Source of the DNA: Octopus vulgaris | Taxonomy: Eukaryota | DNA: 64,000 nucleotides | Assembly (NCBI GenBank): GCA_951406725.2 | Contig: OX597837.1 | Coordinates: 17,422,001-17,486,000, forward strand | Direction: 5' to 3' | Shown here: positions 5,451 through 59,050 of the stretch, in pieces | Position numbering within the stretch: the first letter of the stretch is position 1 | Layout of the letters: every line of letters starts with the position of its first letter | Position numbers and translations under genes: made by a program | The notes under the pieces: generated by a model | The model's database searches: none | What the model was told of the DNA's origin: nothing | What the model saw: the letters and a program-made list of their open reading frames with translations, nothing else

Positions 5451-6418
5451 GTGTGTCCGAAAAAAAAAAAAAAAAAAAAACCGATCTCAAGAGGAGGGGG
5501 CTGTGTTAAGTCCGTGTGGGGTGGTAGTTTGTAGCGTGAAGATGTAGCGTTGCTCCAAGTGGAGCCTGGACAGTGGGCGACCATTGTGGGGGGCGAGACC
5601 AAACACTGAGATGTCATCTCGGGAATGGCCGGCCGAGCGGAAGTGGCGTGCGACGGGAGAAAAAGAGTGTAGGCGAACGTCCCTCAAGTGTTCAGTGAAA
5701 CGGTCGGACAACCGGCGTCCCGTCTGACCTACATACAGCATCCCGCATAGGATTGCATTTAATGCAGTAAATAAGGCCAGACGAGGTGCACGTAAAAGAG
5801 TGCCTAATGCGTACAGTATGCAGGTTGGAGCCGGTGACAGCGGTGGTGTTGGTGATGAAGGGGCAAGTGTTGCAGCGGGATCTAGAGCAAGGGAATGATC
5901 CGTGTGGGGCTGAGGGGGAAGGAGAGAGGGTGCTGTGGACCAGGAGGTCACGCAGATTGCGGGCTCGTTTGAAAGAGGACAGGGGTGGGTTAGGGGAAAT
6001 GGGGCGGGTGGTGGGATCAAGCTGGAGGCGACGGAAGGCACGTAGTATCTTGCGACGAAGGGGTAGGGTAGAGGGGTGGAAAAGGAGGTGGAAGGGGGGC
6101 GGTTGGGGGGGGGGGGGAAGGAGACAGGGCGGTAGTGCGGTCGATGCGACGGGCGCGGGTGAGGGCATCAGAGAGGAGTGTGGGTGGGTAACCTCGGAGT
6201 CTGAACATGCGGGCCAGGTATTGAGATTGGGTCTCGAAATCCTGGTCGCGGCTGCACAAACGTCGGAGGCGGAGGAACTGGGAGTAGGGGATGGCTCGTT
6301 TGGTGTGGAAGGGGTGGGAGGAAGAGAAGTTGAGATAGAGGTGGGAATCCGTAGGTTTAAAGAAGGCGGTGGTGGTGAGAGAGCTGGAGGGGTGATCGAT
6401 GCGGAGAGAGATGTCAAG

Positions 6419-6420
<2 letters not shown>

Positions 6421-6476
<56 letters not shown>

Positions 6477-6541
6477 ATATAATATAATATAATATAATAT
6501 AATATAATATAATATAATATAATATAATATAATATAATATA
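6421..6541. repeat. (TA)n followed by (TAATA)n
   Basis: Directly visible. Confidence 0.95.
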
Positions 6542-6880
6542 ACGTGTCTTGAATGGCACAATAATGTAGAGTGGACTATAATAACTGTTATAATTTAATT
6601 ATCCATACCTGATATCCCTTACTCAGAGATATCCCAGAAACAACTGTAAGATCTTCAATTTCTTCCTATAATAATATTGCATACGACTCGAGATGTTTGC
6701 TTTGCCTTAATTTTTACGTTCCTATTTAACAATAATATATCCGCTGCATCGGAAATCTACAATGGTTCCATAACTACCGTCCAGGCTATAACTATGGAGC
6801 CCCAGTAAACTGTAAAAGCACTTACCTAGTGTACCTAATCGTTTAGATCACCTGCAAACTTAACCCCCATACTCTGTATG

Positions 6881-10929: not shown

Positions 10930-12960
10930 AAAGGAAAGCTAACTTTGACGGTAGTAATTAATCTATTAAGCCAGACCTGCTTGATAAAGCAATCACTTTT
11001 GCGGAGAATTTTACTTATACTTTAGAGAAAAATATTTTTACCGCAAGGACGTGGACCCGATGTAACCTTCAAGACGACTTTGATACTACAATGGGAAGCT
11101 CGGACTCTGCCCAGGTCACTGATACTGTCGGCCTATTCTTACTTCAAAATTAAGGAAGAATTCTTTACTATCAGCGGAGGTTTGTATAGAGACAATTCAT
11201 TATTCGCTATTTCCATCTCCTCTGCACAAGCAACTGATAGGGTAAAGAAAGGATTAATAAAATTTTTGAAGTTATATAACTTAACTATATTTGAAAATGT
11301 CACTGCGTTGGCATATTGGACGTAACATTAAATTTAGATGGTAGCTTATTTCACTCTGACCATAAGTATAATAAAACCATTAAGTATATCCACGCCTTAT
11401 CAAATTATCCCCAAAGTGTTATTAATGGGGGTAGTCAAAGGTGTGTCGATAAGAATCTCTAACTTATCTGCAAACAAAAACATTGTTTGTAACTTTGCAT
11501 CCTTTTATAATAAAGCATTGAAGGACAGTGAATTCAATAGAACAATAGAAAGATATTAAGAATACAATATTTAAATATTAGTTAAACGTTTTCCAAATAT
11601 TGCGAAATTAAACATCGACATACCTCCCATGAACACCCCCCCCCCCCCAGCATAAGAACCGACATCATAATGGAAGATACTATAAATCAGTTAATTATAA
11701 TAATAATAACTATACTGGGCAAAGTAGAAAGAACTCGGTGAGGAAAAGGGAAATTATCTGGTTCACCCCCTCCTTTTTCGCTCCAAGTCAGAAACCTCCC
11801 TAAATTATTTTTAGGATTATTGACAGGAATTTCTCATTAGGCCATAAATATCATTTCCATCTTTAATAGGTCCCGCTTTAAATTATCGTACTCAACCACG
11901 CCCAACCTAGGATCTATAATTGCGGCCAACAATAGATTTAAACTCAGAAATAATAGTATTGATAGAGATGACAATATAGCTGACCTTAATATGAAGAATA
12001 ATAACAAGAATCCTGATATTAAAAATATAAAGGCGAAGCATGGAAATAAAATATGTAATTGCCGTAACAGGGAATTATGCCCCCTAAGGGGATTCTGCTT
12101 AAAGAGAAATGTCATATATAAAGTTGAGGTTTCAACCCTTAGTGAATCAAAAAAGATTTACACAAGAAGTACGACTGATTTTAAAACTAGATATAGGGCA
12201 CACACAAATTCATTTATTATTCAAGACACAAAAAATTCAACTGCACTAGCTACTCAAATAAATAAATTAAAAATGCGCAATAAAGAATTCAGTCTAGATT
12301 GGTCTATTATAACGGAAACCACACCATAAAATGCACACACCAGAAGCTGCAAATTATGCACAAAAGAAGCGATCTGTATACCCCATGTTGGCAAAAAAAA
12401 AATTTTACCTAACAAGATCTCGGATGTCATTATTCTTTGTAGACATAAATATTTATCAACTTAAATAAAAAAAGTTTTTAATTAGTTTATATAATTTTAA
12501 CCTAGTTACCCTTTATGTATTTGGATTCATCTTAAAACATTATTGTCTATAGTTTCATAATTTATTTAAACGTGTAATTTTAACTCATATTATATCATCC
12601 ACCTGAACAATAAGTTCTGACACAGAATTCAGTTTTTTAAAATTCTTAAATTTCTCATGTTGCTTAAAAGTTTAAGATTTAAATAACTCTTTTATAAATC
12701 CTTTAGATTAACTCTGATGATAGAAATATAGATGATTGTTATGTTTGGAATACCAACCTATATCTTCTCGAAACGGCCGTCAGACATTGCACCTGCTCAA
12801 GATTACTTTTAAAATAATTTTATACCAATAATTTTATATTTGGATTACCTCTATACATTCACCATCCGCATATTTTAATATGCTCATTGATTTTAATACG
12901 GACACACAACCTCGCAAGTACATTTATGCGTTTTTATATATTTATACATTTATAAATTTT
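10930..12960 (+). mobile_element. Degenerate Penelope-like element (RT, GIY-YIG, 3' region with HHR)
   Basis: GGLYRDNSL (YRDD-like), LDVTLNL, ISNLSAN, and CNCRNRELCPLRGFCLKRNVIYKVEV..KIYTRSTTDFKTRYRAH..STALA..WSII; many stops and frameshifts. Confidence 0.85.
12709..12785 (+). ncRNA. HHR motif in the PLE 3' region
   Basis: ct-CTGATGA-tagaaatatag...ctatatcttctc-GAAA-cggccg-TC-ag: canonical core, palindromic stem III acggccgt, long stem II, stem I eroded to about 2 bp. Confidence 0.7.
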
Positions 12961-31643: not shown

Positions 31644-31674
<31 letters not shown>

Positions 31675-31840
31675 ACATAAAGTGTACTAGCCATCTGAAT
31701 GTGGCTAGTCACTGGGGGTGGGTGTTACTGACGCTTTTAGCCCCAGGAGATCGACGTCTCCAGCTGGCCTTAGACACAATTTCAGTGCCCTAGTGTTATT
31801 TGCAAAGGGAGGTCATCCTCCCTCGAAAACCTAAGTGATA

Positions 31841-31885
31841 CATACGGACTATAGTTACAAGGTTTTTGCCTCTCGTCAACGTATG
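31841..31885 (-). ncRNA. Variant type I HHR, copy 1
   Basis: catacg-TTGACGA-gagg(caaaaa)cctt-GTAA-ctatag-TC-cgtatg: 6-bp stem I, 4-bp stem II, palindromic stem III actatagt; core changes C3U and A13U. Confidence 0.75.
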
Positions 31886-32253
31886 GTAAACACCGGTTTT
31901 CGATGATTATCTTTATTATGATCAATAGATCTAACATAGAATGGGTACATTACAGGACAAAACAATTACAAAACTGCTATGCGAGTTCGAATGAAATTAT
32001 AAAAATTACAAAAGTAAAATTTTATGTAACTTGAACGAAAACTTGGCTTACTTCGCCTTGAAACGAAACCTTGGCTTACTTTTGCCTTTATCACGAGAAC
32101 TTTTAGTGCGTATGTTTTCTTTTCTTTTTTTTTTATTATTAATTCTTTATTTTAAACAGTTATGTACAGTGAAAGGTAATGGGAGGTACCAGTTTCAATT
32201 TTGAACCCGGCAGCCTATAAATCCCAGCAGCTGATTTTTCCTTTCCTCGATGA

Positions 32254-35200
32254 TTAAGCTGGGTTACTCTCACCCACCTTTCTCATCACATCCTTCCAAC
32301 GTTCCATATACTCTTTCTGTGGCAGGCTCCTCTTCTCCAACCCCATCTTGCTCTTCAGATGATATCCGAAGTATTTTAACAAACCGGGGCCATAGATAAA
32401 GGACCCTTTCACTAGACCTTCCACTCTAGTTCTCCATACACACTCTTTCCATACTGCCACCGTACAGTAAAAACAAGCCTTACCTTCCTTTGAGAGTCCA
32501 GTTGGCGGTATCATCTTAATCATAGATCCAGCCGACAGCTGTACTCGTCCCAGATGCGACAACACGTGTTCCACGTAACTTATCAAGCCTGACAGCTCCC
32601 GACAATGTACAAAAGCGTGTTGAACGGTTTCATCGTCCAACCCACATCTTGGACACGTCGGTGGCACTGACATTCCGTGCCTGGATAACTTCTCGCGAAC
32701 AGGTAATGCATTCCTATAGCACTGCCAGGTCAGGGATTTTTGGTAAGTATCCAAATACCCCGACCTGAAAGTCTTCTTAAACAGGTTGGAGAGTTGATCC
32801 TCATCGAACCCTAGAGCCCTTCCTAGGACGTCGTCATTTTTTCCCTCTACCAGCCCTTTATAGAACACCGAGGTGGTATTCCCGCTGCCGGCCTTACCCA
32901 TCTTGTGGATCAGCCAGAGTGCCTGTCGGCACTCCTTCTGCCATGAAGTCAGTTTACGTCCTTTAATGAGACCGGGTGTAAATCCCTCCATAGAGGCCGG
33001 TCGCGGGAAGAATTCCTCTGCCAGCGAACTCCACACCTTATCATCCTCCAGGTAACACCAGAGGTGTCTCAGCCTCAACGCATGCTTGCGCATCATTAGC
33101 CAAGGCATCCCCAGTCCACCCTTTAGCGGTTCCTGGCAACACACTTACAAGCGTCTTACAAGTGGCTTTCCTCCTTTCCACAAAAAGCGGAAAAGGAGTC
33201 GTTCCAACTTGTTTAACCACGAATCGGGGCAAGGCACGACGGTCAGGCGGTAGGTGACGACAGAGGCTATAAACATCTGTGCCACCTCCGCCCTCCCTTT
33301 CAAGGAAAGATGCCTTCCGGACCACTTCCGTACTATGGCATCCACCTTGCTCGTTACCTCGCTCCAATTCTTCTCCGTTTGGGAGTCTGGACCAAACCAG
33401 ACTCCGAGCAATTTAACAGGACCATCCGTCCAGTGTCCAACAACACTGGACGGTATCGGCTTGTTCCTCCAGGTGCCGAGGCGCAAACCGATGGACTTGT
33501 CCCTGTTAACTTTTGCCCCTGCCACCGCTTCGTATCTATGGAGAGCACCTGCTACCCGAGGTAGCTGTGTTCCGTTGGACACGATGAGGGTGACGTCATC
33601 CGCATAGGCAGAAACAGACTTACCGCATCCGATTTCATTAGGGTTGCCTCCCAACTTCTCCAGCTTCCGCAGCAATGGCTCAAGGGCCAAAACATACAGG
33701 AGCGGGGACAAGGGGCACCCTTGACGGACTGAACGCTTGATTGAAAACGGCTCCGTTAGGTAACCGTTTATCTGGACTGTGGACTTGATGCCACTGTACA
33801 TAGCTGAGATCCATCCGCAGAAGCCAGGGCCCAGCCCAGCCGCTTCGCGAACCGCCGCCAAGTACCGATGGTCTACCCTATCAAACGCTTTACTTTGGTC
33901 TAAATGGACCAATGCCCCTCCTTTGCCGTCTAATTTCCCGACCCTATCTATAGTGTAGCGGAGGTGAAGATTATCTTGGATCGACCTGCCTGGGATTGCA
34001 CATATCTGTGCCTTCCCGACAAGTTTCTCCACGACAGCCGTCAACCTTTTTGCTAACACCTTGGCCAAAATCTTAAACTCTACATTAAGTAGAGTTATGG
34101 GCCTGTAATTACTAATACTGTCCCCCTTGCTCGGGTCTTTCTGGACCAGCGTCACAACTCCCCGACTCACAGAGCTGGGAATCCTCTCATTCTGTTGCCA
34201 GTTTGTATAGACGCTTGCCAGTATGTCCACGAACAAGTGCGGCATACAACAATAAAATTAATCCAATCCCGGCGACTTTTCCCCGGCGCACTCGGCCATA
34301 ACCCCTCTTACCTCTGCGGGAGAGATCGATCCTTCACAGCACTCCGCCTCACCTGCCGAGAGCCGAGGCCCACCAGCTAGGAAGTCCTTTAAGGTCTCCC
34401 CACGCTCGAGCGGACCACCGTCCCCAAACAGCCGTGCGAAATGCTGGTGAAGGACCTTCTGCATATCCTCCTGTCCATAGATCTTGCGGTCCTGTACGTC
34501 AGTTAAGGACATAATACAGGACTTTTTGCCCTTCTGACTCTCCTCACGACGGGCCCATCCGGCAACGTTAATACCTTCTCGTTTTCCTGCACGTAACTTA
34601 GCTCTGACTCTACACCCCTCGTGCTTGGCGTTGAGGTGATGGTACAATACCGCTCTCGCTGCCAACACTCCAGATGCACAGCCAGATTCCATAGCCTCGT
34701 CTAAGTTCTTAACTAATTCGCCCTCTATTCTAGTCCTATCTAAACTTAGCTGCTTGCTAAATCTAATGGACTCCAAACGGATGGCTCTTTTGAGGGCGAG
34801 CCACCATCTATTATTAATGATGGTGCCACATAATGCCCTCTGTACTAATTCCTTAATCCGGGTACAGAAAGCTTCACAGGTCAGAATAGACTTGTTCATC
34901 TTCCAGTACCCGGGACCTTGTCTATGGCATTTATCTACATGTACCTCACACGTTACAAGTTTGTGATCCGTGTAAGGCACAACAGAGAATTGTGGACAGC
35001 TAACACTATTCCTATCTCGTTCCTTAACAAATACTCTATCTATGTACGATCTGCGTGAGCCGTCGTTATTACTCCACGTCCACTGTGGAACGTTCGTCTC
35101 ATCCAGTCGAAAACGGTCTACTAGATTAAAGCTCGCTAGTAGAGCCTTGAGGCCAGGATTCCCCTTCCTATCGCTCGAGCCTACACCATCCACCCGCGCA

Positions 35201-35623
35201 TCGAGAATGGTGTTGAAATCCCCTACCAAGACTACGTTTTGGACGTCAATAGAAAGTGCTCCAGTTCCCAAAAAAAACCGGTCTGCCCACGTCCATTAGG
35301 AGCGTAGACAGCCTGAAGGACTGCTTACTCACGTGCGTCACATCTAGGACAACCAGCCTACCTTCTGCGTCCAGAAAGACAGTACTTACCTGTAAGTCCA
35401 AGTTCTTCCTGAAAAGAACTGCCACGCCTGCACCTCCCTCCCGGCTAGGAGAAATACATTTCTCGTAACCATTGAGAAGTGGTGAGAACGCTTGGGGTCC
35501 TTTCATCTTGGACTCGGTAACAATAGCTACATCGATTCTATGTGAAATGAGGTCGTCCCGAAAACAAGCCTGTTTCCATTTCGATCCCTATCCACGCACA
35601 TTTATACAACCTAACTTAATCAT
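32254..35623 (-). pseudogene. LINE ORF2 (AP endonuclease, reverse transcriptase, Cys-rich C-terminus) with stops and frameshifts
   Basis: MIKLGCINVRG*, VTESK, LVGDFN, SYIDRVF, TDHKLV, YWKMN, NYRPITLLN, LDQSKAFDRVDH, SVRQGCPLSP, AYADD, CPRCG..ETVQHAFVHC, split over ORFs 35246..35506, 34258..35271, 33145..34245 and 32254..33144. Confidence 0.95.
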
Positions 35624-35646
35624 CGAGAAAAAAGAAAATTATTTAC

Positions 35647-37151
35647 TCATGGTTGCGAGAGGGAGCCTGACAGATTCTTTCTGCCTGTCTCCCCCACACT
35701 CGCCGTTGCTGCTGGGTGTTTCACCGGCGTTGCCACCGGGCTCTGGGTTGGTGTGGCTGCCGGGCTGACGTATAATTTCCCAGTTGTCACCTCCTGGGTG
35801 ACATCCTGAATGAAGCCGGCTTTTACGTGGCTTTGTAAGGTTTTATCTTTCCATCCTTCTTCGCCGACCCTGGCATATCGCCACTCCGCTTCCTTCTCGG
35901 TCGCTTTGTAGCACCTGATCAGCGTACTTGCTTGCACCCATGTTGCTACTCTCACGTTCTTTGTGGTGTATGCAATAATTTTTTCATTGGGTTTAAACCC
36001 TTTTACAGTTGGGGGGTGGGGTTTGTTAAAGTGCTGGCCTATAAGTGTAGTACAGCCGGGGTGGGATTGGAGACTATTTTTTTTGTTCGTCTGCGTTGTT
36101 TTTGTTTTTTTTGATACGGGTGGGGAGTCAGGGGTGATGGATTTTTTCCTTTTGTACGACACGTTCGTGAATTCCATTTCTTGTATATTTGTTTTTGTTG
36201 TATTAATTTCCTCCTCCTTTCCTTTCTCATTTTGCATTTCGTTCTTGTCTTCCTCCTTTTTGGAGTTCGACCTGTTTATTTTTTCCTCCTTGCTTTCGCC
36301 AGCCGTTACTTTGTTCTCCACTTTGCTGCTTTCTGCGTTCTTCACAGCGTTTTGTGGGGGGCGTTGCCCGTATTATTTTTTTTTGTGCAAACGGAGCGAA
36401 CGTGGCCCTTTTGCCCGCACTTAAAACATCTGGGCCTGCGTCCTTCCACCGAAACTCGTATGGAGTGCCCCTCCCCCACGAAGACTCTGTCTGGTAGGCT
36501 TTCCAACGTCGCATTTTCTGCCTGGATAATCATCTCCAGCTGCTGGCCTCTCCAGTGTTTTGCAATTTTCCTCTTCATACTCAAAATTGTCAATTTTGAT
36601 TCAACATCAAAAATGACCGCTGTTGCCGCCCACATCACGTCGTAGCCCGTTGGTATATCTTCTAGGGTCACTTTTGCTGTTCTGCATCCTAAATATAAGG
36701 GTAGCAGTATTATATTCTCGTTTTTCAACGTTTGCGTCGAAATTTGCCTTGCTTCTTCCGCCGTCTCAAAATGCGCCTCCACTGTAGCGCTTCTTGCACC
36801 TCGGTTGACATGACTAACTTTACTCCATATTGGAGCCATACACTTTTCGACCATTTCGTTTTTTACGTCGGTCATTCGTTTTTCTTTTATATTGTACACC
36901 TTGTAGGTGACCATTTTTTCCTTTATTGCCTGTATAGTTTCAGGGGGCGGTACCAATCGTGTTTCTTCACCACATTTTTGCACCAGCGGTCTGAACTTGA
37001 ATAGTCTTTCCATTGACACCTCCATTTCTTCCACTTCGCCACCTACGGCGTCTGAAAAACTGGGTTTTGCCTGTGTTTCCTTTTGTTTAACAGTTGTTAT
37101 ACCTTCTCCCATCTCGGGAAAGTCTTTTTTTGAACTTAAGTCTAATTCCAT
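35647..37151 (-). pseudogene. LINE ORF1 (gag-like, CCHC zinc knuckle), frameshifted near 36345-36385
   Basis: CFKCGQKGHVRSVC in ORF 36342..37202; continues as Lys/Glu-rich ORF 35647..36345. The break is near a homopolymer run. Confidence 0.9.
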
Positions 37152-37703
37152 ATTAGACAACACAAACTTGTCACAAATGACAAGAGAATTTTTTTTTTCC
37201 AAAAATAACCTATACAGGTTAAGAGTTCACACAAAAAAACACAGAAATTTTCTACCCCGAAGGGCGAAAATTACTGGGTCAAAAACAGTTCAACAATGAT
37301 ATTACGTGTAACACGACAAAGTAGACAAACGGAAACGAACTCACACAACTATTTGCAGCAACAGAAAAATATTGGTATACTCCGAGGAAAAATTCAAAAA
37401 ACACCGGTTTTCGATGAAGGAGACCTTTGCAAATAATATTTAACGTTTTTCCCAGCAACCACGGTCACTGATTTAGAAAAACTGTCTGAAAGCATTAATA
37501 AATCTCCGAACGAGATATAAACAGTAACCGCTCGACAACGTAAAGTGTACTAGCCATCTGAATATGGCTAGCCACTGGGGGTGGGTGTTACTGACGCTTT
37601 TAGCCCCAGAAGATCGACGTCTCCAGCTGGCCTTAGACACAATTTCAGTGCCCTTGTGTTATTTGCAAAGGGAGGTCATCCTCCCTCGAAAACCTAAGTG
37701 ATA

Positions 37704-37748
37704 CATACGGACTATAGTTACAAGGTTTTTGCCTCTCGTCAACGTATG
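37704..37748 (-). ncRNA. Variant type I HHR, copy 2 (identical to 31841-31885)
   Basis: Same 45 nt; forms the apex of the 230-bp inverted repeat. Confidence 0.75.
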
Positions 37749-37979
37749 GTAAACTATAGTCCGTATGTATCACTTAGGTTTTCGAGGGAGGATGATCTCC
37801 CTTTGCAAATAACACTAGGGCACTGAAATTGTGTCTAAGGCCAGCTGGAGACGTCGATCTCCTGGGGCTAAAAGCGTCAGTAACACCCACCCCCAGTGGC
37901 TAGCCACATTCAGATGGCTAGTACACTTTTACGTTGTCGAGCGGTTACTGTTTATATCTCGTTCGGAGATTTATTAATG

Positions 37980-38089
<110 letters not shown>

Positions 38090-38321: not shown

Positions 38322-40270
38322 AGAATTCACAAAAAAAACAAAAGACGAATATAGGTGGTGTAGACAACAAACAGATATATTATTTTAAAGCTCGGGAAGT
38401 GAAAAAAGTGAAAAAAGAGCCTACGCTCTTCCACAGAAAGGAACACAGAAAGAAACAAGGAGAGAAAATAAAAAATGTGTAGTGGCTAGCAATCTATCAT
38501 GGCAAATAACGGACAGAAGGGTCACACAGGAGAGCTAGGGAGAAGGGAAGATAATAAAGTAGTGGTGATCCCAAAACGAAGGTGCTCGTGCGTGTGAATA
38601 AGAGAGTTTGTATGTGCATCTGGAAGAGGGCTGATGATCTTGACGTGTGCGTGTGTGTATGTGTAGGTTTGAAAATGTGGGTCCGGGAAGTGGTCAATAC
38701 TGATGTGTGCGTGGTGGTGTGTTGTGATGTGTTGTGTGGTATGGTGGTGTAAGGTGTAGTAGGTGTGGTGAGGTGGGGTGTGGGTTAGGCTGAGGGTGAG
38801 TATGTGGGTAGGCGGAGGGTGGGGGTAGAGGTAGGGTATGTGAGAGTGGGTGGAAGGAATGGGGTGGGGTGGTCTTACGAGGGAGGGGTGACGATGAAGA
38901 GGAAAGAGAAGGAGGTAGGAGTTAAGAGAAGAGAGAAGGAGAGTAGGAGTGAAGAGAAGGAGTCGGAACAAGAGAGGAGAGGTGGGTGGAAGGAAGTAGG
39001 TGTGAGGGGAGAGAGGCGAGGGGAAGAGGTTAGATGAAGAGAAGTGGAGAGTTGAGCCCATGTGGCACAGAGGAGCGAAGAGAGAAGATTAATCCCTGTT
39101 CACGGCACAAACGGGGATCCGGATGACCCCTGTGCAAGGACAATCCGAACACGGACAGGTGCTGCAAAGAGTGACCTGTAGAGCGGAAATGGTACGAGAC
39201 TGGGGTGTCATTGCCGAGTCAGATGTCTCGGAGGTATTCCGCGAACCGGTCAGCCAAGCGGCGTCCCGTTTGCCCGATGTATAGAGAAGGGCAGAGAGAG
39301 CAGGAGATGCAGCAGATGACATTGGTAGAAGTGCAGGTGAAGGAGTCGGTGATGTGATAGGGTCAATGATGGGTGCCGTGAGGAGGGTGGTGTTGGAGAG
39401 ATAAGGGCAATTGCGGCAGTGTGGGTGGGAGCAGGGGAACGAGCCAGGTTGGGGGGTTGGGTTAGGGAAGAAGCTGTGGACCGAGAGGTCTCGTAGGTTG
39501 TGGCTCGTTTGAAGGAGGGGGGCAGTTAGGGAAGATGTGCGAAGTGGACGGGTCGGACTGGAGTCGCCAGAAGGTTCGAAGAATGGTGCGTTGGAGAGGT
39601 AGGGTGGTGGGATGGTGAGGGGAAATGGGAGGCGGGAGACGGTGGGGTGGGGTGGGTTCAGGGGGAGAGAGCAGATGCACGGTCCTCGGAACGTGCTCTG
39701 GCAAGGGCGGTGTGGATAGTGGTGAGGGGATATCCACGTAGGATGAAGTGGAAAGCCATGAGTTGAGACTGAATCTCAAAGTCATGGTCGTCACTACAAA
39801 GCCTGCGTGGACGGAGGAATTGGGAATAGGGGATGGAAAGCTTGGTGTGTTTAGTGTGGGAGGAAGAGAAGTTGAGGAATGAGTGTGAGTCTGTGTGTTT
39901 GTAGTGGATGGAGGTGGTGAGAGTGGAGTGATGAATGCTGACCAAAATGTTAAGAAAGGAAACAGAGGTGTCAGAGATAGTGCAGAAGAGGAGGGCAGGA
40001 TGGAAAGATTTGTCAAAAGAGAGGAAGGAGTCTAGTTGTTCGCGGGAGAGTGAGGTCGCACCGATACAGTCGTCAATATAACGGCCGTATAGTTCGAGAG
40101 TGGGACCAGTGAAACTTGAGAATATTTGGGCCAACGAACAGATTCGCATATTGGGTCCATTCTCGTTCCCATGACCACTCCCGAGGTTTGCTGGTAGAAA
40201 TCACCCGCAAACGAGAAGCAGTTGAATGAGAGGACAAGTTCGGCCAAACGAACAAATGTGGATGTGTCAG
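38318..40270 (-). mobile_element. 5'-truncated Penelope-like element (RT, GIY-YIG, pyrimidine/CA-rich 3' region, terminal repeat)
   Basis: FSFAGDFYQQTSGVVMGTRM, YGRYIDDCIG, YKHTDSHSFLNFSSSH, IPYSQFLRPRRLCS, CSSALLYIGQTGRRL; same lineage as 5487-6420; terminus matches 7020-7191 with the HHR GAAA part deleted. Confidence 0.9.
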
Positions 40271-41064: not shown

Positions 41065-41114
41065 AATGCATTCCAGAAGTTTTGAGACTTTTTTATGAGA
41101 CTGTTATAGCAAAA

Positions 41115-42197
41115 TCTTTATTACAATCATGCGATCTTACATAGATAGGGACATAACAAGACAGACAAATACAAAGAATGTTAAATGAGTTCGAATGAGA
41201 CTTAAAAATTTAGTTGTAATATGACATAAACGAAAACTTGGCTTACTTTTGCCTTTAAACGAATCATTGGCTTACAACGAGAACTTTTGTGTGTATTTTT
41301 TTCTTTTAATAAAATAAGAAAACATGACATATGCTAAAACGAAAAGGGGAAAATGCAGGTTCCAAAAATTTTGAACCCGGCAGCCTATAAGGCCCAGCAA
41401 CTAATTTTTCCTTTCTTCGATGATTAAGCTGGCTTACTCACATCCACCTTTCTCATCGTTTCACATACTCTTTCTGTGGCAGGTTCCTCTTCTCCAACCC
41501 CATCTTGCTCTTCAGATGATATCTGAAGTAGTTTAACAAACCGGGGCCAGAGACGAAGGATCCTGTCACAAAACCGTCCATTCTGATTCTCCACACACAC
41601 TCTTTCAGTACTGCCACCGTACAGTAAAAACAAGCCTCACCTTCCTTTGAGAGTCCAGTTGGTGTTATCATCTTTATCATAGATCCAGCCGACAGCTGTA
41701 CTCGTCCCAGATGCGACAACACGTGTTCTACGTAACTTATCAAGCTTGACAGCTCCCGACAATGTACAAAAGCGTGTTGAACGGTTTCATCGTCCAACCC
41801 ACATCTTGGACACGTCGGTGGCACTGACATTCCGTGCCTTAATAACAGGTAATGCATTCCTATAGCACTGCCAAGTCAGGGATTTTTGGTAATTGTCCAA
41901 ATACCCCGGCCTGAAAGTCTTCTTAAACAGGTTGGAGAGTTGATTCTCGTCGAACCCCAGAGCCCCTCCTAGGACGTCGTCATTTTTTGCCTCTAACAGC
42001 CCTCTATAGAACACCGAGGTGGTATTCCCGCTGCCGGCCTTGCCCACCTTGTGGATCAGCTTGAATGCCTGTCGGCACTCATTCTACCATAAAGTCAGAT
42101 TCCGTCTTTTAATGAAACCGGGTTTAAATCTCTCCAAAGAAGCTGGTTGCGGGAAGAATTCCTCTGCCAGCGGACTCCACACCTTATCACCCTCCAA
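41115..42197 (-). mobile_element. 5'-truncated copy of the same Tx1 LINE family (3' end)
   Basis: Colinear with 31910-33050 (CPRCGLDDETVQHAFVHC, same 3' UTR, aataaaga end) with small deletions. Confidence 0.95.
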
Positions 42198-42299
42198 GTG
42201 ATATAGCTGTCCTTATTTCTTTAGTTCATTTAATCGAATTTGCCATAAAGACATTACATAGATAGAAGTAAGTGCGGGCTAGATAACAACACAAATGAA

Positions 42300-45869: not shown

Positions 45870-46860
45870 TTTACCTTGCTATCATTGATAAGGAGCCCTT
45901 AAAGGTTGTGAATTTTTGCACAAATCGGTGGTTGTCAGTAGAACCAGCTGTAAGTAGAATTTGAAGCCAATAGTTTGAACCACAAACTCACTTCCAAACT
46001 ACAAGTACAAAGAAAAGTGTTTCACATTTCAAACGCTACAAGAAATGTTTTGTGATTCTCGGAATGAACTTTTCCTTTTATTTTTGCATGCAATTCTAAA
46101 ATATGTGCACGAAGTGAATAAACTGCTTGAATGAAACATTGTTGACAAGACAAAATTACTTGAAGATCTTTCAAATTTGATAAAATTTATTACTAATAAG
46201 ATAGTATTATTAATATGTACATTTGATCTGCTTGATTTTGATGCTTATATTGAAGAATTTCTCAATCCTAAACCAAATCTAGGCTATAAAATCGAGAGAA
46301 AGATAGCAGAAATGTTTGTCAAGAAGACTATAACAGCTACTGAAGAAAATAATATTCATAATAAAGCAAAACAGTTTTTACTCAGCCCTTATAAAGAGCT
46401 CAAACAACTTTTGCCGGAATACTTTAAAATACCGGGAATATCGAATGTTTTTTTTAGTAGAGATTACTTTGAGACATTTAATAGAACTAAACAATGTATT
46501 TAAATGAAGAGAAATGTCTGCAATTGAAATTCAGTTTAATAGCATCGATTTAGTTAAATGGACAAATACAGCTAATACTGAGGCATTAGGAGTTTTGGAT
46601 TATAAAAATGTCACTGGAGGGAATCCTTTCAAAGATGTTGCAAAATGTACCATTAACCTATTAATATTGCTAAGCTCAAATACCGAAATCGAATGGTTGT
46701 TCAGCAGTATGAATAGAATCAAATTGAAACTGAGAAACAAAATGCAACTTCTTATGCTCGGATCAATCCTCCCTGTAAAATACGGCCTAAAAAGATATGG
46801 CAAATGCTGCAAAAACTTCAACATTCCAAAACCTATATTTAACAAGATTGGAACCTTGTA
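45870..46860 (+). mobile_element. hAT-like transposase C-terminal pseudogene fragment
   Basis: NRWLSV at about 45923; FKDVAKCTINLLILLSSNTEIEWLFSSMNRIKLKLRNKM resembles the hAT dimerisation domain (SxAxxERxFS..RNxL). Confidence 0.8.
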
Positions 46861-48029
46861 TATTTACAAAAGTCAAGATCCAGGGACTGCAGCTGAAAGT
46901 GAACAAATCAGTGAAATTGAAGAAATTATTTCCCAACACCACCTCCAAAGGATAAATATCTTACAAAGACTTCAAAGTACTCACAAATAATTTGAAACAA
47001 CAATATCTACAAACAGTCCTGAAAATACACAGCTGTATATGAAAATTAATATTCGCAACAACAATAAAAACAAAGTACAATTGTCCCCCTTCTCAACGTT
47101 ACAGATCTGCACAGAATATATCTAAATATATTTATTTATAAATATGTTTTTAAACACAAAAATAAGCCTAAATAAATCTAAGAATTCTGAAATTAAACGC
47201 CAACAACATTAAAAATACCCTTATATCATCACTCATAACATTCATGTAGCAATTATTCAGGAAACATTACTAGCGGAATGCTGAATACTCACCATTCCAA
47301 ATTATACTCAGGTGTGACAGACCTTTTTTACAATCTAAGAGAACTTAGACAGAATACTCATATATAAATTATAATCAGGAATGACACAATTCGAAATTCA
47401 TTAATGTAATAAAAATATATATCGTACAGCCATTCTCATCAACGGTCACACTAGACTACAGTTACAACACTTCAGCGCAATCACAAACACAATCAATGGG
47501 AAGACTCCAACGCTTACATCACCTGCATTCTGAATGTTACAGATAACAGGGAGGGTGGACACCCTTTATATTATAAACAATATGTATATATATATAAACT
47601 TAAATAATTTGGGAAAACTAAATTCCAAATCAATCAGGTACAGCTCCTTAGCATTACATGCATCTGAATATCGTATCTTGGAGTTTTATTTATCATATAT
47701 TTATATATTTATCTATAGATATATAAAGTATCTAATAAAAGTCAATAATAATTCAGCTTTTGGGGATTAATACATATGCGGGTATTCTATTTCAGAGAAT
47801 ACAAAAAAAACAACCTAATGAGTATATCTAAAAGTAAACTCATGGTATCCATTTGCACATCACGAAATAATACTTAAAGGACATAACCCTTATACCTGCA
47901 GGGTATATACTATACTTCCTTAACTATTTCCTAGTTTAGTTAACACTAAATTAATTAAATATGAAGGAACTACAGGTATTTCAGTATTGGAAGATTACAA
48001 TATATATACATACACACAATTGTATACAT

Positions 48030-48699: not shown

Positions 48700-49712
48700 T
48701 TATAAAGTCTATTCAAGTGCTGTAGAAATAAAATTGTGTGGATATTTGATTCAGGGGTGGGGGTTCAGCACTTCATTTTATTGAAGGTAAAATTACTTCG
48801 GTGCCTACATTTAACTCCTCGTTCATCATATGTGTTTAATGATTCATCTCTAGATTGTAGTAGTTTCATAAATTCTGTTATGCATAATAAACACATGTTA
48901 TTCCCATTATAGGAGTGGGTTCTACCTATTATACTCCAGTTAAGGGTGTACTCTCTTTTTCTAGATTTTAGTTCTCATATATATTTACTTAAGCCTGTGG
49001 ACTTACTTAAATTAGGATTTTTGAAGGTCTGGTAGAGTTGGGATATTCTTTTTTTAATGTCATTAGCTGTTGATCCAATATAAGCCTTATTTATAATTGT
49101 ATTATTATTGTTCTTAGAGGTTACTCTACATTTATAAATTACATTATTAATATTACAATTATTAGAGAGTTTACATTTAGTCTTATCACGACATGAACAT
49201 TTTTCTATATGTTGATTAAGACTTCTATCACTATTGGTTATATTATTGCTAGAGTTATTATTTATTTTGCTATTATAATAATTATTTAATTTCTTATTAT
49301 TTATAGAGGAAATGATATTGCATACGTTTCTCGATATTGAGTATCCCACTCTTATGGTTTTATTGGAAAATATATTTGAGTAACCGTTGTCCTTTTTAAA
49401 AACAATTTTTACAGTTTTAAGTGTCTCCTTGGTAATATTAGTCATAACTTGAGACCCATATGGAATAATTAACCATATAATATCCTTTTTATTTTTTATA
49501 TTTTTTATATTATCATTAGACATCATTGGTATTAAATTGTTATTCTTAGGTATATTATATCTCTTCTTGTATACTTTCCTATGTTTCTTACTATTGCTCA
49601 TATTCTCATTATCAATATTAGTATTATTATTGTAATCATTTATAACAATATATTGTTTTTGTCTTTATTTAGTTTGTTACATTTTCTTTTATCATTATTC
49701 ATATTTTTAACT
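48700..49712 (-). mobile_element. Penelope-like element fragment (linker and GIY-YIG)
   Basis: CSCRDKTKCKLSNNCNINNVIYKCRV..AYIGSTANDIKKRISQ..STGLSKYI, then CLLCITE. Confidence 0.85.
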
Positions 49713-57320: not shown

Positions 57321-57689
57321 GTGTAAGTAGTCATCTCCAATGTAAGTACTTGTCATGGTTCGACAACTACTTACATTGTAGAGAGAGCATGCAAAACGAT
57401 AAGCGTTAACTCGATAAGCCGATAACGTACACTGCTGTCGCTGACACTGTAAGACTGTCTGTAATGTGACAACGCCGTAGGTGAACAGAACTCAAAACTG
57501 CAGAATTACACAATGCTGCTCAGCTAGCTGCTGCTGCGTCGACTAATCACGTCTTGTCACGTGTACACATAGTCAGCCAATAGCGTACCTGACGGACTCT
57601 TCCGAGACACGCCCACAACAGACAAGAACAACGAATGAATTTTGTTAGTGGAACTAAATTTAGCAGAAGTTAATTGGTCCGATGAGGTA

Positions 57690-58045
57690 GGACCGCCTTT
57701 GGCAGTAATTACAGCTTGAATTCTACGAGATATGGACTCGTACAAAGTTTGAATTATTTCTAAAGGAATTTTCGTGCATTCTTCAGCTAACACAGTCTCC
57801 AGCTCTTGTAGTGGTGATGGTGGAGGATATCGACTCCTTACTTGTTTTTCTAAAATTCCCCATAAATGCTCAATAATATTGAGATCTGGGGACTGTGGTG
57901 GCCAGATAAGATGTTCAACTTCACTAGACTGTTCCTCGTGCCATTGAGTAACAACTTTAGCTGTGTGATTTGGTGCATTGTCATCCTGTAAGATTGCGTT
58001 TTCCTCCAGAAACAGTTCCGCAACCATAGGATGAATTTGATCAGA
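57690..58045 (-). mobile_element. Tc1-family (DD34E-type) transposase C-terminal fragment
   Basis: ILQDDNAPNHTAKVVTQW..LIWPPQSPDLNIIEHLWGIL..RRIQAVITAKGGPT. Confidence 0.9.
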
Positions 58046-59050
58046 TAAAATGCAGTGACCCGGCCTTCGTCTCGGTTTGTACTCTTCACAAATGTATGCA
58101 TAAGGCATCTATCGTAATGGCCATGTGTCAGGTCATAGTTAAAGGCTGCTCGTTCCTCACTCTTAGTGAGAAAAAGCCTAAATTCCAACCTGACTTGTTG
58201 TTCTGATGTTTCCTGTTCTCTGGAACGGGCAATTTTGGCTTCGTTCCTTTGAAGTTATTCTGTTAACATCTGTTCTCTTAAGCGGGCTTTTCTATCAGTG
58301 TCAGACTCCAACCTCCGTCGTTTCTGCTCTGGTGTTTCATGTTTCCTTAAACGGGCTTGTCTATCTGCTTTAGGGACCTTCACTGCGGGCTAGCTAACAA
58401 TCTGGCCTGCAGAGAAGGGACTAACGGTTAAGCGGGACAGCAGCCAGGGGATTTAAATGACCGATCGTACTCGTCCTCACATCGTAGCTGAGTGAAGCAA
58501 AATAAACAATAAACTGACATATTCTTGCTTCTGATTATTTTCATGTATAGCTTAATAAAGCTATAGTGTATATTACGATTATATGGGAATTTAATGTAAA
58601 AAAAACTGTGGGTGTGCACATATACATACGGACACACAACATATAACTATTTCCAAATTTCCAGATTTTCAAGTTTCATTTCGTAGATATATATGTTATG
58701 TGTGTCAGCATATACGTGGGTGCGCTCATCAATTTTTTTCCCCTTTAAATTCTGATACAATCGTAATCTATACTACCTGATAGGTATTTGTAGAAAATTT
58801 CATTAAAAAAATATCCATTTTTCTTAAAGTTATGGGGAAACAAATTCTGGAGTTAGAGACACAATTATGTGGGTATTCATATATATATATATTGGGTATG
58901 GTAGAAGAGTTCAACAAAAATTTAGATTCAGATGAATATGGTACTTAAGTTGAGGTGCCAGAATTTAGTACGGTATTATTCATACAATTTCAAAGTAAGG
59001 TGATTAAAGTCAAAATAAGCATTACCTCTGGATATCCTTGTTGCTTATTT

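Follow-up and report, generated by a model that had tools for sequence, protein, structure and literature searches.

Ty3 and TRE5 target the start sites of RNA polymerase III (Pol III) genes through promoter factors. Among long interspersed nuclear elements (LINEs) of the Tx1 clade, Tx1L of Xenopus and the crocodilian Tx1-Mar and Tx1-9_AMi are target-specific and insert into other transposons or repeats (PMC4494074; this and all further sources are cited from the parts of them that were consulted). The same source names the HAL1 'half-L1' elements and cites R2, whose 28S rRNA co-transcript is released by the element's own ribozyme. Keno (Tx1 clade) and Utopia (RLE clade) are specific for U2 small nuclear RNA (snRNA) genes, with U2 nucleotide 39 downstream, and sometimes stand in tandem (PMC4640811), and Dada DNA transposons insert inside U1, U6 and tRNA genes (PMC8869645). 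Newt satellite 2 has a snRNA promoter, as cited in PMC2220036, and in the consulted parts of the 2026 retrozyme preprint (bioRxiv 10.64898/2026.07.22.740005) the terms promoter, snRNA and nested are absent. Here we analyse a LINE in a 64,000-nt stretch of the Octopus vulgaris genome (assembly GCA_951406725.2, contig OX597837.1, positions 17,422,001 to 17,486,000; hereafter the window), which had been predicted to be a full-length Tx1 element bracketed by two co-oriented hammerhead ribozymes and to target the ribozyme-bearing repeat, a retrozyme. In our reading, which we consider probable, it is one broken member of an L1/Tx1-type LINE family (family A) with site specificity. The family inserts at one register of the retrozyme and at the first base of U2, likely a snRNA-type start with a proximal sequence element (PSE), whose promoter it likely borrows. 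A literature search, with Repbase, subscription journals and supplements (including the PMC4494074 Tx1 targets: satellites, U5) outside its scope, found no LINE described as having retrozymes or PSE start sites for its target.

Family-A 3' ends were collected genome-wide using a LINE-only, flank-free pattern that was designed from previously observed ends and requires an exact match, so that the 28 copies retrieved are a lower bound; a looser pattern was discarded because it gave 3040 matches compared with 2052 for its control. All 28 copies were read. At one and the same retrozyme register we found 21 of them, 18 running into the retrozyme head and hammerhead (17 called by rule, L033 by eye) and 3 into the head and then another element; 5 lie at U2 +1 and 2 elsewhere. 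In sum, 26 copies are at the retrozyme or U2 +1; the duplications measure about 16-19 nt and extend from -2/-5 to +14. Of the two copies elsewhere, L045 has a flank beginning TTTCATCGC and a retrozyme arm on its 5' side, and L051, a short off-target copy, shows a clean 16-nt duplication and no retrozyme tail. A rough estimate that generously allows 5000 sites and a 6-nt window puts the chance of such a hit at about 5 in a million per insertion. The 3' flanks counted across the genome are hence non-random, and the preference for the retrozyme put forward in the original prediction holds.

These insertions occurred independently, because near-identical LINEs occupy strongly diverged units: LINEs that are 99.8-100% alike sit in retrozyme units that are 71-73% alike, and in 129 of 153 pairs LINE similarity exceeds target similarity by more than 8 points. 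Duplication length also varies between insertions, and a 5'-truncated copy at the identical site bears its own duplication (L027/L221). The alternative that the copies go back to one old insertion, multiplied together with its retrozyme as a composite through duplication or Penelope-type mobilisation, is refuted for the whole family by this comparison of LINE and target divergence, and we give it practically no credence; the U2 copies, spread over two chromosomes and preceded by U2 promoters of different types, speak against it as well. What it does explain are a few duplicate pairs, namely L185/L186, which share a deletion and identical targets, and the inverted pair L129/L130, which are perhaps duplicates. 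At the latter locus (G000:C4:124.12-124.14 Mb) two full-length LINEs stand back to back in both arms of an inverted retrozyme locus.

Upstream of the insertion register, retrozymes and snRNA genes carry the same motif at the same distance. ATCAGT was found in 27 of 28 U2 genes (-57 to -61), in all 16 U1 genes (-57 to -59) and, counted from ATCG, in 16 of 20 retrozyme heads (-56 to -60) that had been chosen by their ribozyme core only, and elsewhere within the same 300 nt it occurs 0 (U2), 5 (U1) and 2 (retrozymes) times. In these 20 retrozyme heads ATCG invariably lies 58 nt ahead of the hammerhead cut. Of 25 full-length LINE copies, 3 could not be parsed at the 5' junction; 18 of the remaining 22 are preceded by ATCAGT, and in 4 a different element stands in tandem ahead of the LINE. 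Since ATCAGT is placed as in U1 and U2, a snRNA-type start is likely, and motif position thus suggests that the retrozyme unit likely contains a snRNA-type promoter with the LINE at its predicted start. The patterns used detected no distal octamer/SPH element ahead of U1 or U2. The idea that the family gains its expression from the retrozyme is thereby supported by way of a promoter in the unit, and not by way of the ribozymes.

If, on the other hand, sites were chosen by sequence alone, through the endonuclease and pairing of the read-through tail and the head of the RNA with the target, the link to promoters would be a by-product of selection for transcribed donors. In line with this, the targets have Y-ATCG-N4-YY-GG in common, ATC is frequent at the start of off-target flanks, target bases have become a constant part of LINE 3' ends, similarity between LINEs tracks that between their targets (Spearman 0.52 across 153 non-independent pairs), and the jump into U2 carried the head of the retrozyme subfamily whose start (ATCGCT) best matches U2. 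However, heads may disagree at 5 of 14 positions even where the LINEs are near-identical, the heads used by an ORF1-only element at the same position (see below) share no sequence, and the minimal motif common to family-A targets has 9819 genomic matches (about 17 of the first 100 listed resemble retrozyme heads by eye), which are mostly unused. As none of the 28 copies lies at a match outside the retrozyme or U2, the short motif is insufficient for site choice, and we regard sequence-only targeting as unlikely. That sequence (ATCG) or RNA pairing also matters follows from the avoidance of U1 by family A (0 of 28 copies) and its entry into U2 with the best-matching head.

The U2 genes also indicate where the donor RNA probably began. 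Four full-length U2-inserted copies consist of U2 +1 to +14, then ATCGCTACGTGGTG, then the LINE, and are followed by U2 from -3/+1. Apart from one change, this 14-mer equals the head of one retrozyme subfamily, and it starts exactly at that subfamily's +1, so that the donor RNA likely began at +1 and not at the upstream ribozyme. The U2-inserted copies are found on two chromosomes and behind different types of U2 promoter. In the U2/U1 arrays at G000:C3:20.77-20.84 Mb, C23:43.31 Mb and C18:49.0 Mb, LINEs part the snRNA coding region from its promoter, and at one U2 gene two LINEs stand in tandem (L194/L195).

At the window locus the elements are arranged as follows (window coordinates, listed in minus-strand order).

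37752..37982, plus strand: inverted arm of the retrozyme unit, produced by inversion at the 5' side of the locus and bordering on (TA)n at 37982-38086
37704..37748, minus strand: upstream type I hammerhead motif, degenerate (U3, GUAA for GAAA), predicted cut 37710/37709
37418..37754, minus strand: retrozyme unit 1 and linker with promoter-like region, beginning at about +16 at the inversion junction; L162 is an empty relative
37467..37472, minus strand: PSE-like ATCAGT core; the predicted start, 37415, follows 57 nt downstream
37402..37417, minus strand: target-site duplication, 5' copy, spanning -2 to +14 with the predicted +1 at 37415, followed by 3 ambiguous T
31907..37401, minus strand: full-length L1/Tx1-type LINE of family A, both open reading frames (ORFs) broken
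35647..37151, minus strand: ORF1 with CCHC knuckle motif, frameshift at an A-run near 36372-36381
32254..35623, minus strand: ORF2 with AP endonuclease, reverse transcriptase and zf-RVT, 2 frameshifts and 3 stops
31912..31917, minus strand: AATAAA, 5 nt ahead of the LINE 3' end, no poly(A) tail
31891..31906, minus strand: 3' copy of the target-site duplication, +1 at 31904
31841..31885, minus strand: downstream type I hammerhead motif with identical degenerate core, predicted cut 31847/31846 (+58)
31674..31904, minus strand: retrozyme unit 2, truncated at (TA)n 31647-31674
41114..42199, minus strand: 5'-truncated off-target copy of an older sister subfamily, 83% identical to the window LINE and 88% to L228

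The inverted unit copy at 37752-37982 sits ahead of the upstream hammerhead and forms part of a 93.7% palindrome (37490-37982). The LINE and both hammerhead motifs share the minus strand, as had been described. The duplicated repeat, TCATCGAAAACCGGTGTT, begins at 37417 and 31906 on that strand; of the 19 bp originally given for it, 16 nt are strictly duplicated and the final three T are attributable either to the target or to the LINE's initial T-run, which opens every copy. In the predicted fold of the empty monomer L162 the duplicated sequence lies within the long closing helix of the unit, again as stated before.

The target monomer is 352 nt long, has a type I hammerhead and is tandem, multicopy and non-coding, which fits the definition of a non-LTR retrozyme (150-450-nt unit). 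Its hammerheads also agree with the dimer-dependent type I motifs of PMC4209133. The exact hammerhead core pattern has 1353 matches in the genome and its reversed control has 9, and unoccupied insertion sites are present in the window's own retrozyme subfamily (L162). For 73 distinct hammerheads from the fetched loci, 30 of which had been selected with a GAAA-containing pattern, Watson-Crick pairing reached 77% in stem I and 82% in stem II compared with 46% and 57% after shuffling that ignores relatedness; stem III is palindromic in 52 of the 73. Positions 3 and 8 read C-G in 34, U-A in 21, U-G in 16 and C-A in 2 hammerheads. Covariation of these positions is expected of the hammerhead catalytic pair. 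Given such conservation, covarying stems and a C-G, U-A or U-G pair in 71 of 73, intact retrozyme units are probably active ribozymes. An Rfam search returned no hammerhead in the window or in the retrozyme loci L162/L233, and the ribozyme call therefore depends on motif and covariation. Folds of single hammerheads gave z-scores of -0.75 to -1.34 without stem III and are uninformative on activity. The two window motifs are co-oriented as predicted, yet both read UUGACGA...GUAA, and GUAA replaces GAAA in the window alone among the 73, so that both window ribozymes are likely impaired.

Several further observations concern the retrozyme itself. None of the sequencing runs recorded as RNA contains the stretch. 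In a DNA-like sequencing run the retrozyme body (from the cut site to about +275) is far more abundant than promoter and head. The drop in depth over promoter and head that is seen in contigs from runs guessed to be RNA recurs in this DNA-like run; the guessed-RNA contigs include both the LINE and the retrozyme unit, with ends and levels unreadable from contigs, and a joint that loops back over one unit fits either a tandem or a circle. Several retrozyme copies, and also the inverted arm in the window, end near GAGATTTATTA; this could be a point favoured for RNA 3' ends or for the ends of insertions.

In the original prediction, cleavage at both hammerheads releases a 5863-nt RNA holding the whole LINE; as a mechanism, a read-through transcript of the retrozyme array would be cut twice and this product would be the transposition intermediate. 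The geometry is correct, with a cut-to-cut span of 5863 nt (the 352-nt monomer plus 5511), and the conserved, covarying hammerheads of the family with their 3-8 pairs lend the idea some substance. The release itself is not supported: the upstream cut precedes the predicted start by about 295 nt, and the donor-derived heads, which begin at +1, hold none of the intervening sequence. Moreover, copies multiplied in U2 genes that have no ribozyme, the off-target copy L051 has a clean duplication but no retrozyme tail, and both window cores are GUAA. A short palindromic stem III usually needs a dimer (PMC4209133), and the LINE parts the two partners by 5.5 kb. We consider double cleavage very improbable. 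In our preferred reading, the two hammerheads bracket the LINE only because its target is a tandem unit.

A weaker role for the ribozymes would be that the promoter is borrowed as proposed but the downstream hammerhead makes the 3' end of the LINE RNA, at +58, in a real share of events. Absence of a poly(A) tail, noted in the original prediction for the window LINE, which ends AATAAAGATAA, extends to every copy read and agrees with such a 3' end. So does one junction, L050/L207 (G000:C16:20780103 region), where the retrozyme flank behind a family-A LINE runs precisely as far as the GUC cut and there gives way to a 5'-truncated ORF1-only element, a possible footprint of cleavage in vivo. This is, however, one case in 28, and a template switch onto the 58-nt cleavage fragment, or chance, explains it equally well. 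LINE-free units also break at GTC: among 30 of 101 cores not followed by C that were read, 4 break at the cut (three sharing one junction, two lineages in all), 1 is a chance match and 25 continue. Breaks exactly at the hammerhead cut are rare genome-wide. In addition, AATAAA lies upstream of the cut and the U2 copies need no ribozyme. We therefore judge a ribozyme-made 3' end improbable as a regular route; of the end-processing originally suggested, the 5' part is not supported and the 3' part is possible on this single junction. As the family spread in U2 genes without a ribozyme, the downstream hammerhead seems dispensable.

Taken together, the preferred reading, borrowing of a snRNA-type promoter, would proceed as follows. 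The host promoter would fire at +1 and give an RNA consisting of the 14-nt head and the LINE, with the upstream hammerhead outside the transcript. This RNA would end shortly inside the target, probably being cleaved after the terminal AAUAAA, upstream of the ribozyme cut. The endonuclease would nick just upstream of +1 (-2 to -5) and at +14, and reverse transcription would be primed at the upstream nick. The head at the cDNA end could then pair with the duplicated target head, matching heads being merged and mismatched heads both being kept. Site choice would need more than the short motif, either a promoter-bound complex or pairing of the RNA flanks with the target.

Several points weigh against this reading. 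PSE function is deduced from the position of the motif, the exact motif is absent from 4 of the 20 unselected retrozyme heads, and one retrozyme family has the variant ACAAGTG. U1 genes have the same ATCAGT, yet family A is missing there. The U2 copies all fall into a young subclade with weak support (93/77), so that their double head may have arisen once and been inherited, with one jump into U2 and later spread between U2 genes. An internal LINE promoter within the 250-nt 5' UTR is a possible source of the RNA. Finally, an older subfamily of the LINE, with the 3' end AAAGATTT and using a second retrozyme family that starts ATCT, is often off target: of its 34 copies 30 were read, and 13 of these are on target (10 called by rule, 2 by eye and 1 as a tandem), the remaining 17 being dispersed.

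The window copy at 41114-42199 is such a dispersed older-subfamily member, 90-98% identical to four other short dispersed copies over short stretches. Its differing 3' flank had been held against the predicted target preference; the observation is true of this older sublineage, whose copy here is 83% alike to the window LINE, and has no bearing on family A. The dispersed copies L229, L230, L232, L234, L236, L238, L252 and that of the window are mostly short and have flanks starting TGCTAT or similar, which may reflect relaxed specificity or a second target motif. Other older-subfamily flanks (L239/L240, L243, L225, L246) resemble U1/U2 starts or a hairpin small RNA; Rfam gave no U1 or U2 match for the U1-like and U2-like flanks L239, L243 and L225.

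Further elements share the position. A sister LINE (about 80% identity in ORF2) lies in tandem at the same retrozyme site at three loci, and a sister LINE terminates at U1 +1 in L338; in L337 a U1 head is joined to a LINE 5' end. A 1.6-kb element with one long ORF1-like frame and no ORF2 match (L206, L208, L212; for example L206:495-2100, minus strand) likewise occurs in tandem at this site and, with 94 pattern matches genome-wide, outnumbers family A. It has an AATAAAGA end, and its ORF1 is only 25-30% alike to that of family A. Of 30 copies read (of 94), 26 lie at retrozyme starts, 17 of them called by rule, 3 by eye and 6 as tandems, with one rule hit rejected by eye. The heads at these insertions have no common sequence (AGTAGC, AATCAG, AACAGC, ATCACC), while ATCAGT or a variant is present upstream wherever the 5' side is readable. 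Double heads are seen at the ORF1-only loci L300 and L291 too; junction bases in tandem arrays can be donor-derived. In L295 and L301 a LINE-type 5' end is fused to the ORF1-only element.

These co-inhabitants lead us to a bolder proposal, which we put forward tentatively and consider less likely than its opposite: a guild of LINEs would dock on the SNAPc complex as Ty3 does on TFIIIB. It would form a three-tier parasitism of retrozyme, LINE and ORF1-only element, played out mainly on thousands of dispensable retrozyme promoters and not on host U1/U2, and would permit target switching with almost no change of the endonuclease.

Regarding its coding content, the window LINE has the predicted full length but is not intact. 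Compared with an intact genomic copy, ORF1 has one frameshift and ORF2 two frameshifts and three stops, part of which could be homopolymer errors of the assembly. An intact ORF2 in L131 encodes 1129 aa with Exo_endo_phos, RVT_1 and zf-RVT domains (Pfam), and among PDB structures it matches L1 ORF2p best (E 1e-62), with R2 well behind; the closest named reverse transcriptase relative comes from Argonauta hians (64%). ORF1 shows a CFKC...GH...C motif, which in the intact L135 relative reaches zf-CCHC at E 7.6e-4 and 19.9 bits, the Pfam cut-off being 20.8. Searches returned no named Tx1, Keno, Dewa, Kibi or Koshi sequence; the ORF architecture suggests placement in the Tx1 clade (L1 group). Elsewhere in the window, broken frames at 5487-6598 and 39089-40200 (both minus strand), 11841-12329 and 48975-49664 have no Pfam match. 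By their motifs they resemble pieces of Penelope-type reverse transcriptase and GIY-YIG. A DDE_3 transposase fragment lies at 57557-58108 (minus strand, E 1e-12) and a weak hAT dimerisation match at 46508-46990 (E 0.004).

If our reading holds, snRNA-type promoter start sites, mostly within self-cleaving retrozymes, are a new target class for site-specific LINEs, and their use hints at the mode of transcription of invertebrate retrozymes, which is unaddressed in the consulted parts of the retrozyme literature. Near-identical LINEs on differing targets provide a natural series in which endonuclease, RNA flanks and promoter factor can be compared as the chooser of the site, a long-standing question that is relevant to LINE-based gene insertion tools.

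As with Ty3 and TRE5, the insertion point appears to keep a constant place with respect to a promoter in genes that differ in sequence, although the element class and polymerase differ here and tethering is hypothetical. The 1.6-kb partner is a candidate HAL1-like element by its architecture and shares the site-specific target. The retrozyme resembles described non-LTR retrozymes and newt satellite 2 in its tandem type I hammerhead unit, palindromic stem III, rod-like fold and putative internal snRNA-type promoter (PMC7229834, PMC2220036), but unlike newt satellite 2 the promoter motif is found in an invertebrate retrozyme and its start site is occupied by a guild of LINEs. Like R2, the LINE would rely on a host transcription unit, and co-transcribed target sequence may sharpen targeting; whereas R2 has a ribozyme in its own 5' UTR, the ribozymes here belong to the target and seem dispensable, and we find no R2-like ribozyme-made 5' end, as the first base of the donor heads is +1, which lies downstream of the upstream cut. 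Family A shares with Keno and Utopia the insertion into U2 snRNA genes, sometimes in tandem; those elements split U2 (PMC4640811), whereas family A, at +1, does not interrupt U2 but separates it from its promoter, and has U2 as a minor target. The closest likeness is to Tx1L, Tx1-Mar and Tx1-9_AMi, LINEs with an AP endonuclease and a reverse transcriptase that strongly prefer one position in another mobile element and form tandems with a duplicated spacer, with non-autonomous partners on the same target and a proposed transcription from the flank (PMC4494074); in contrast to these, the target here is a hammerhead retrozyme with a predicted snRNA-type start shared with U2 and U1 +1, a kind of target that the consulted parts of that source do not mention. 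The element thus behaves as a target-specific Tx1 element that is distinct from Keno.

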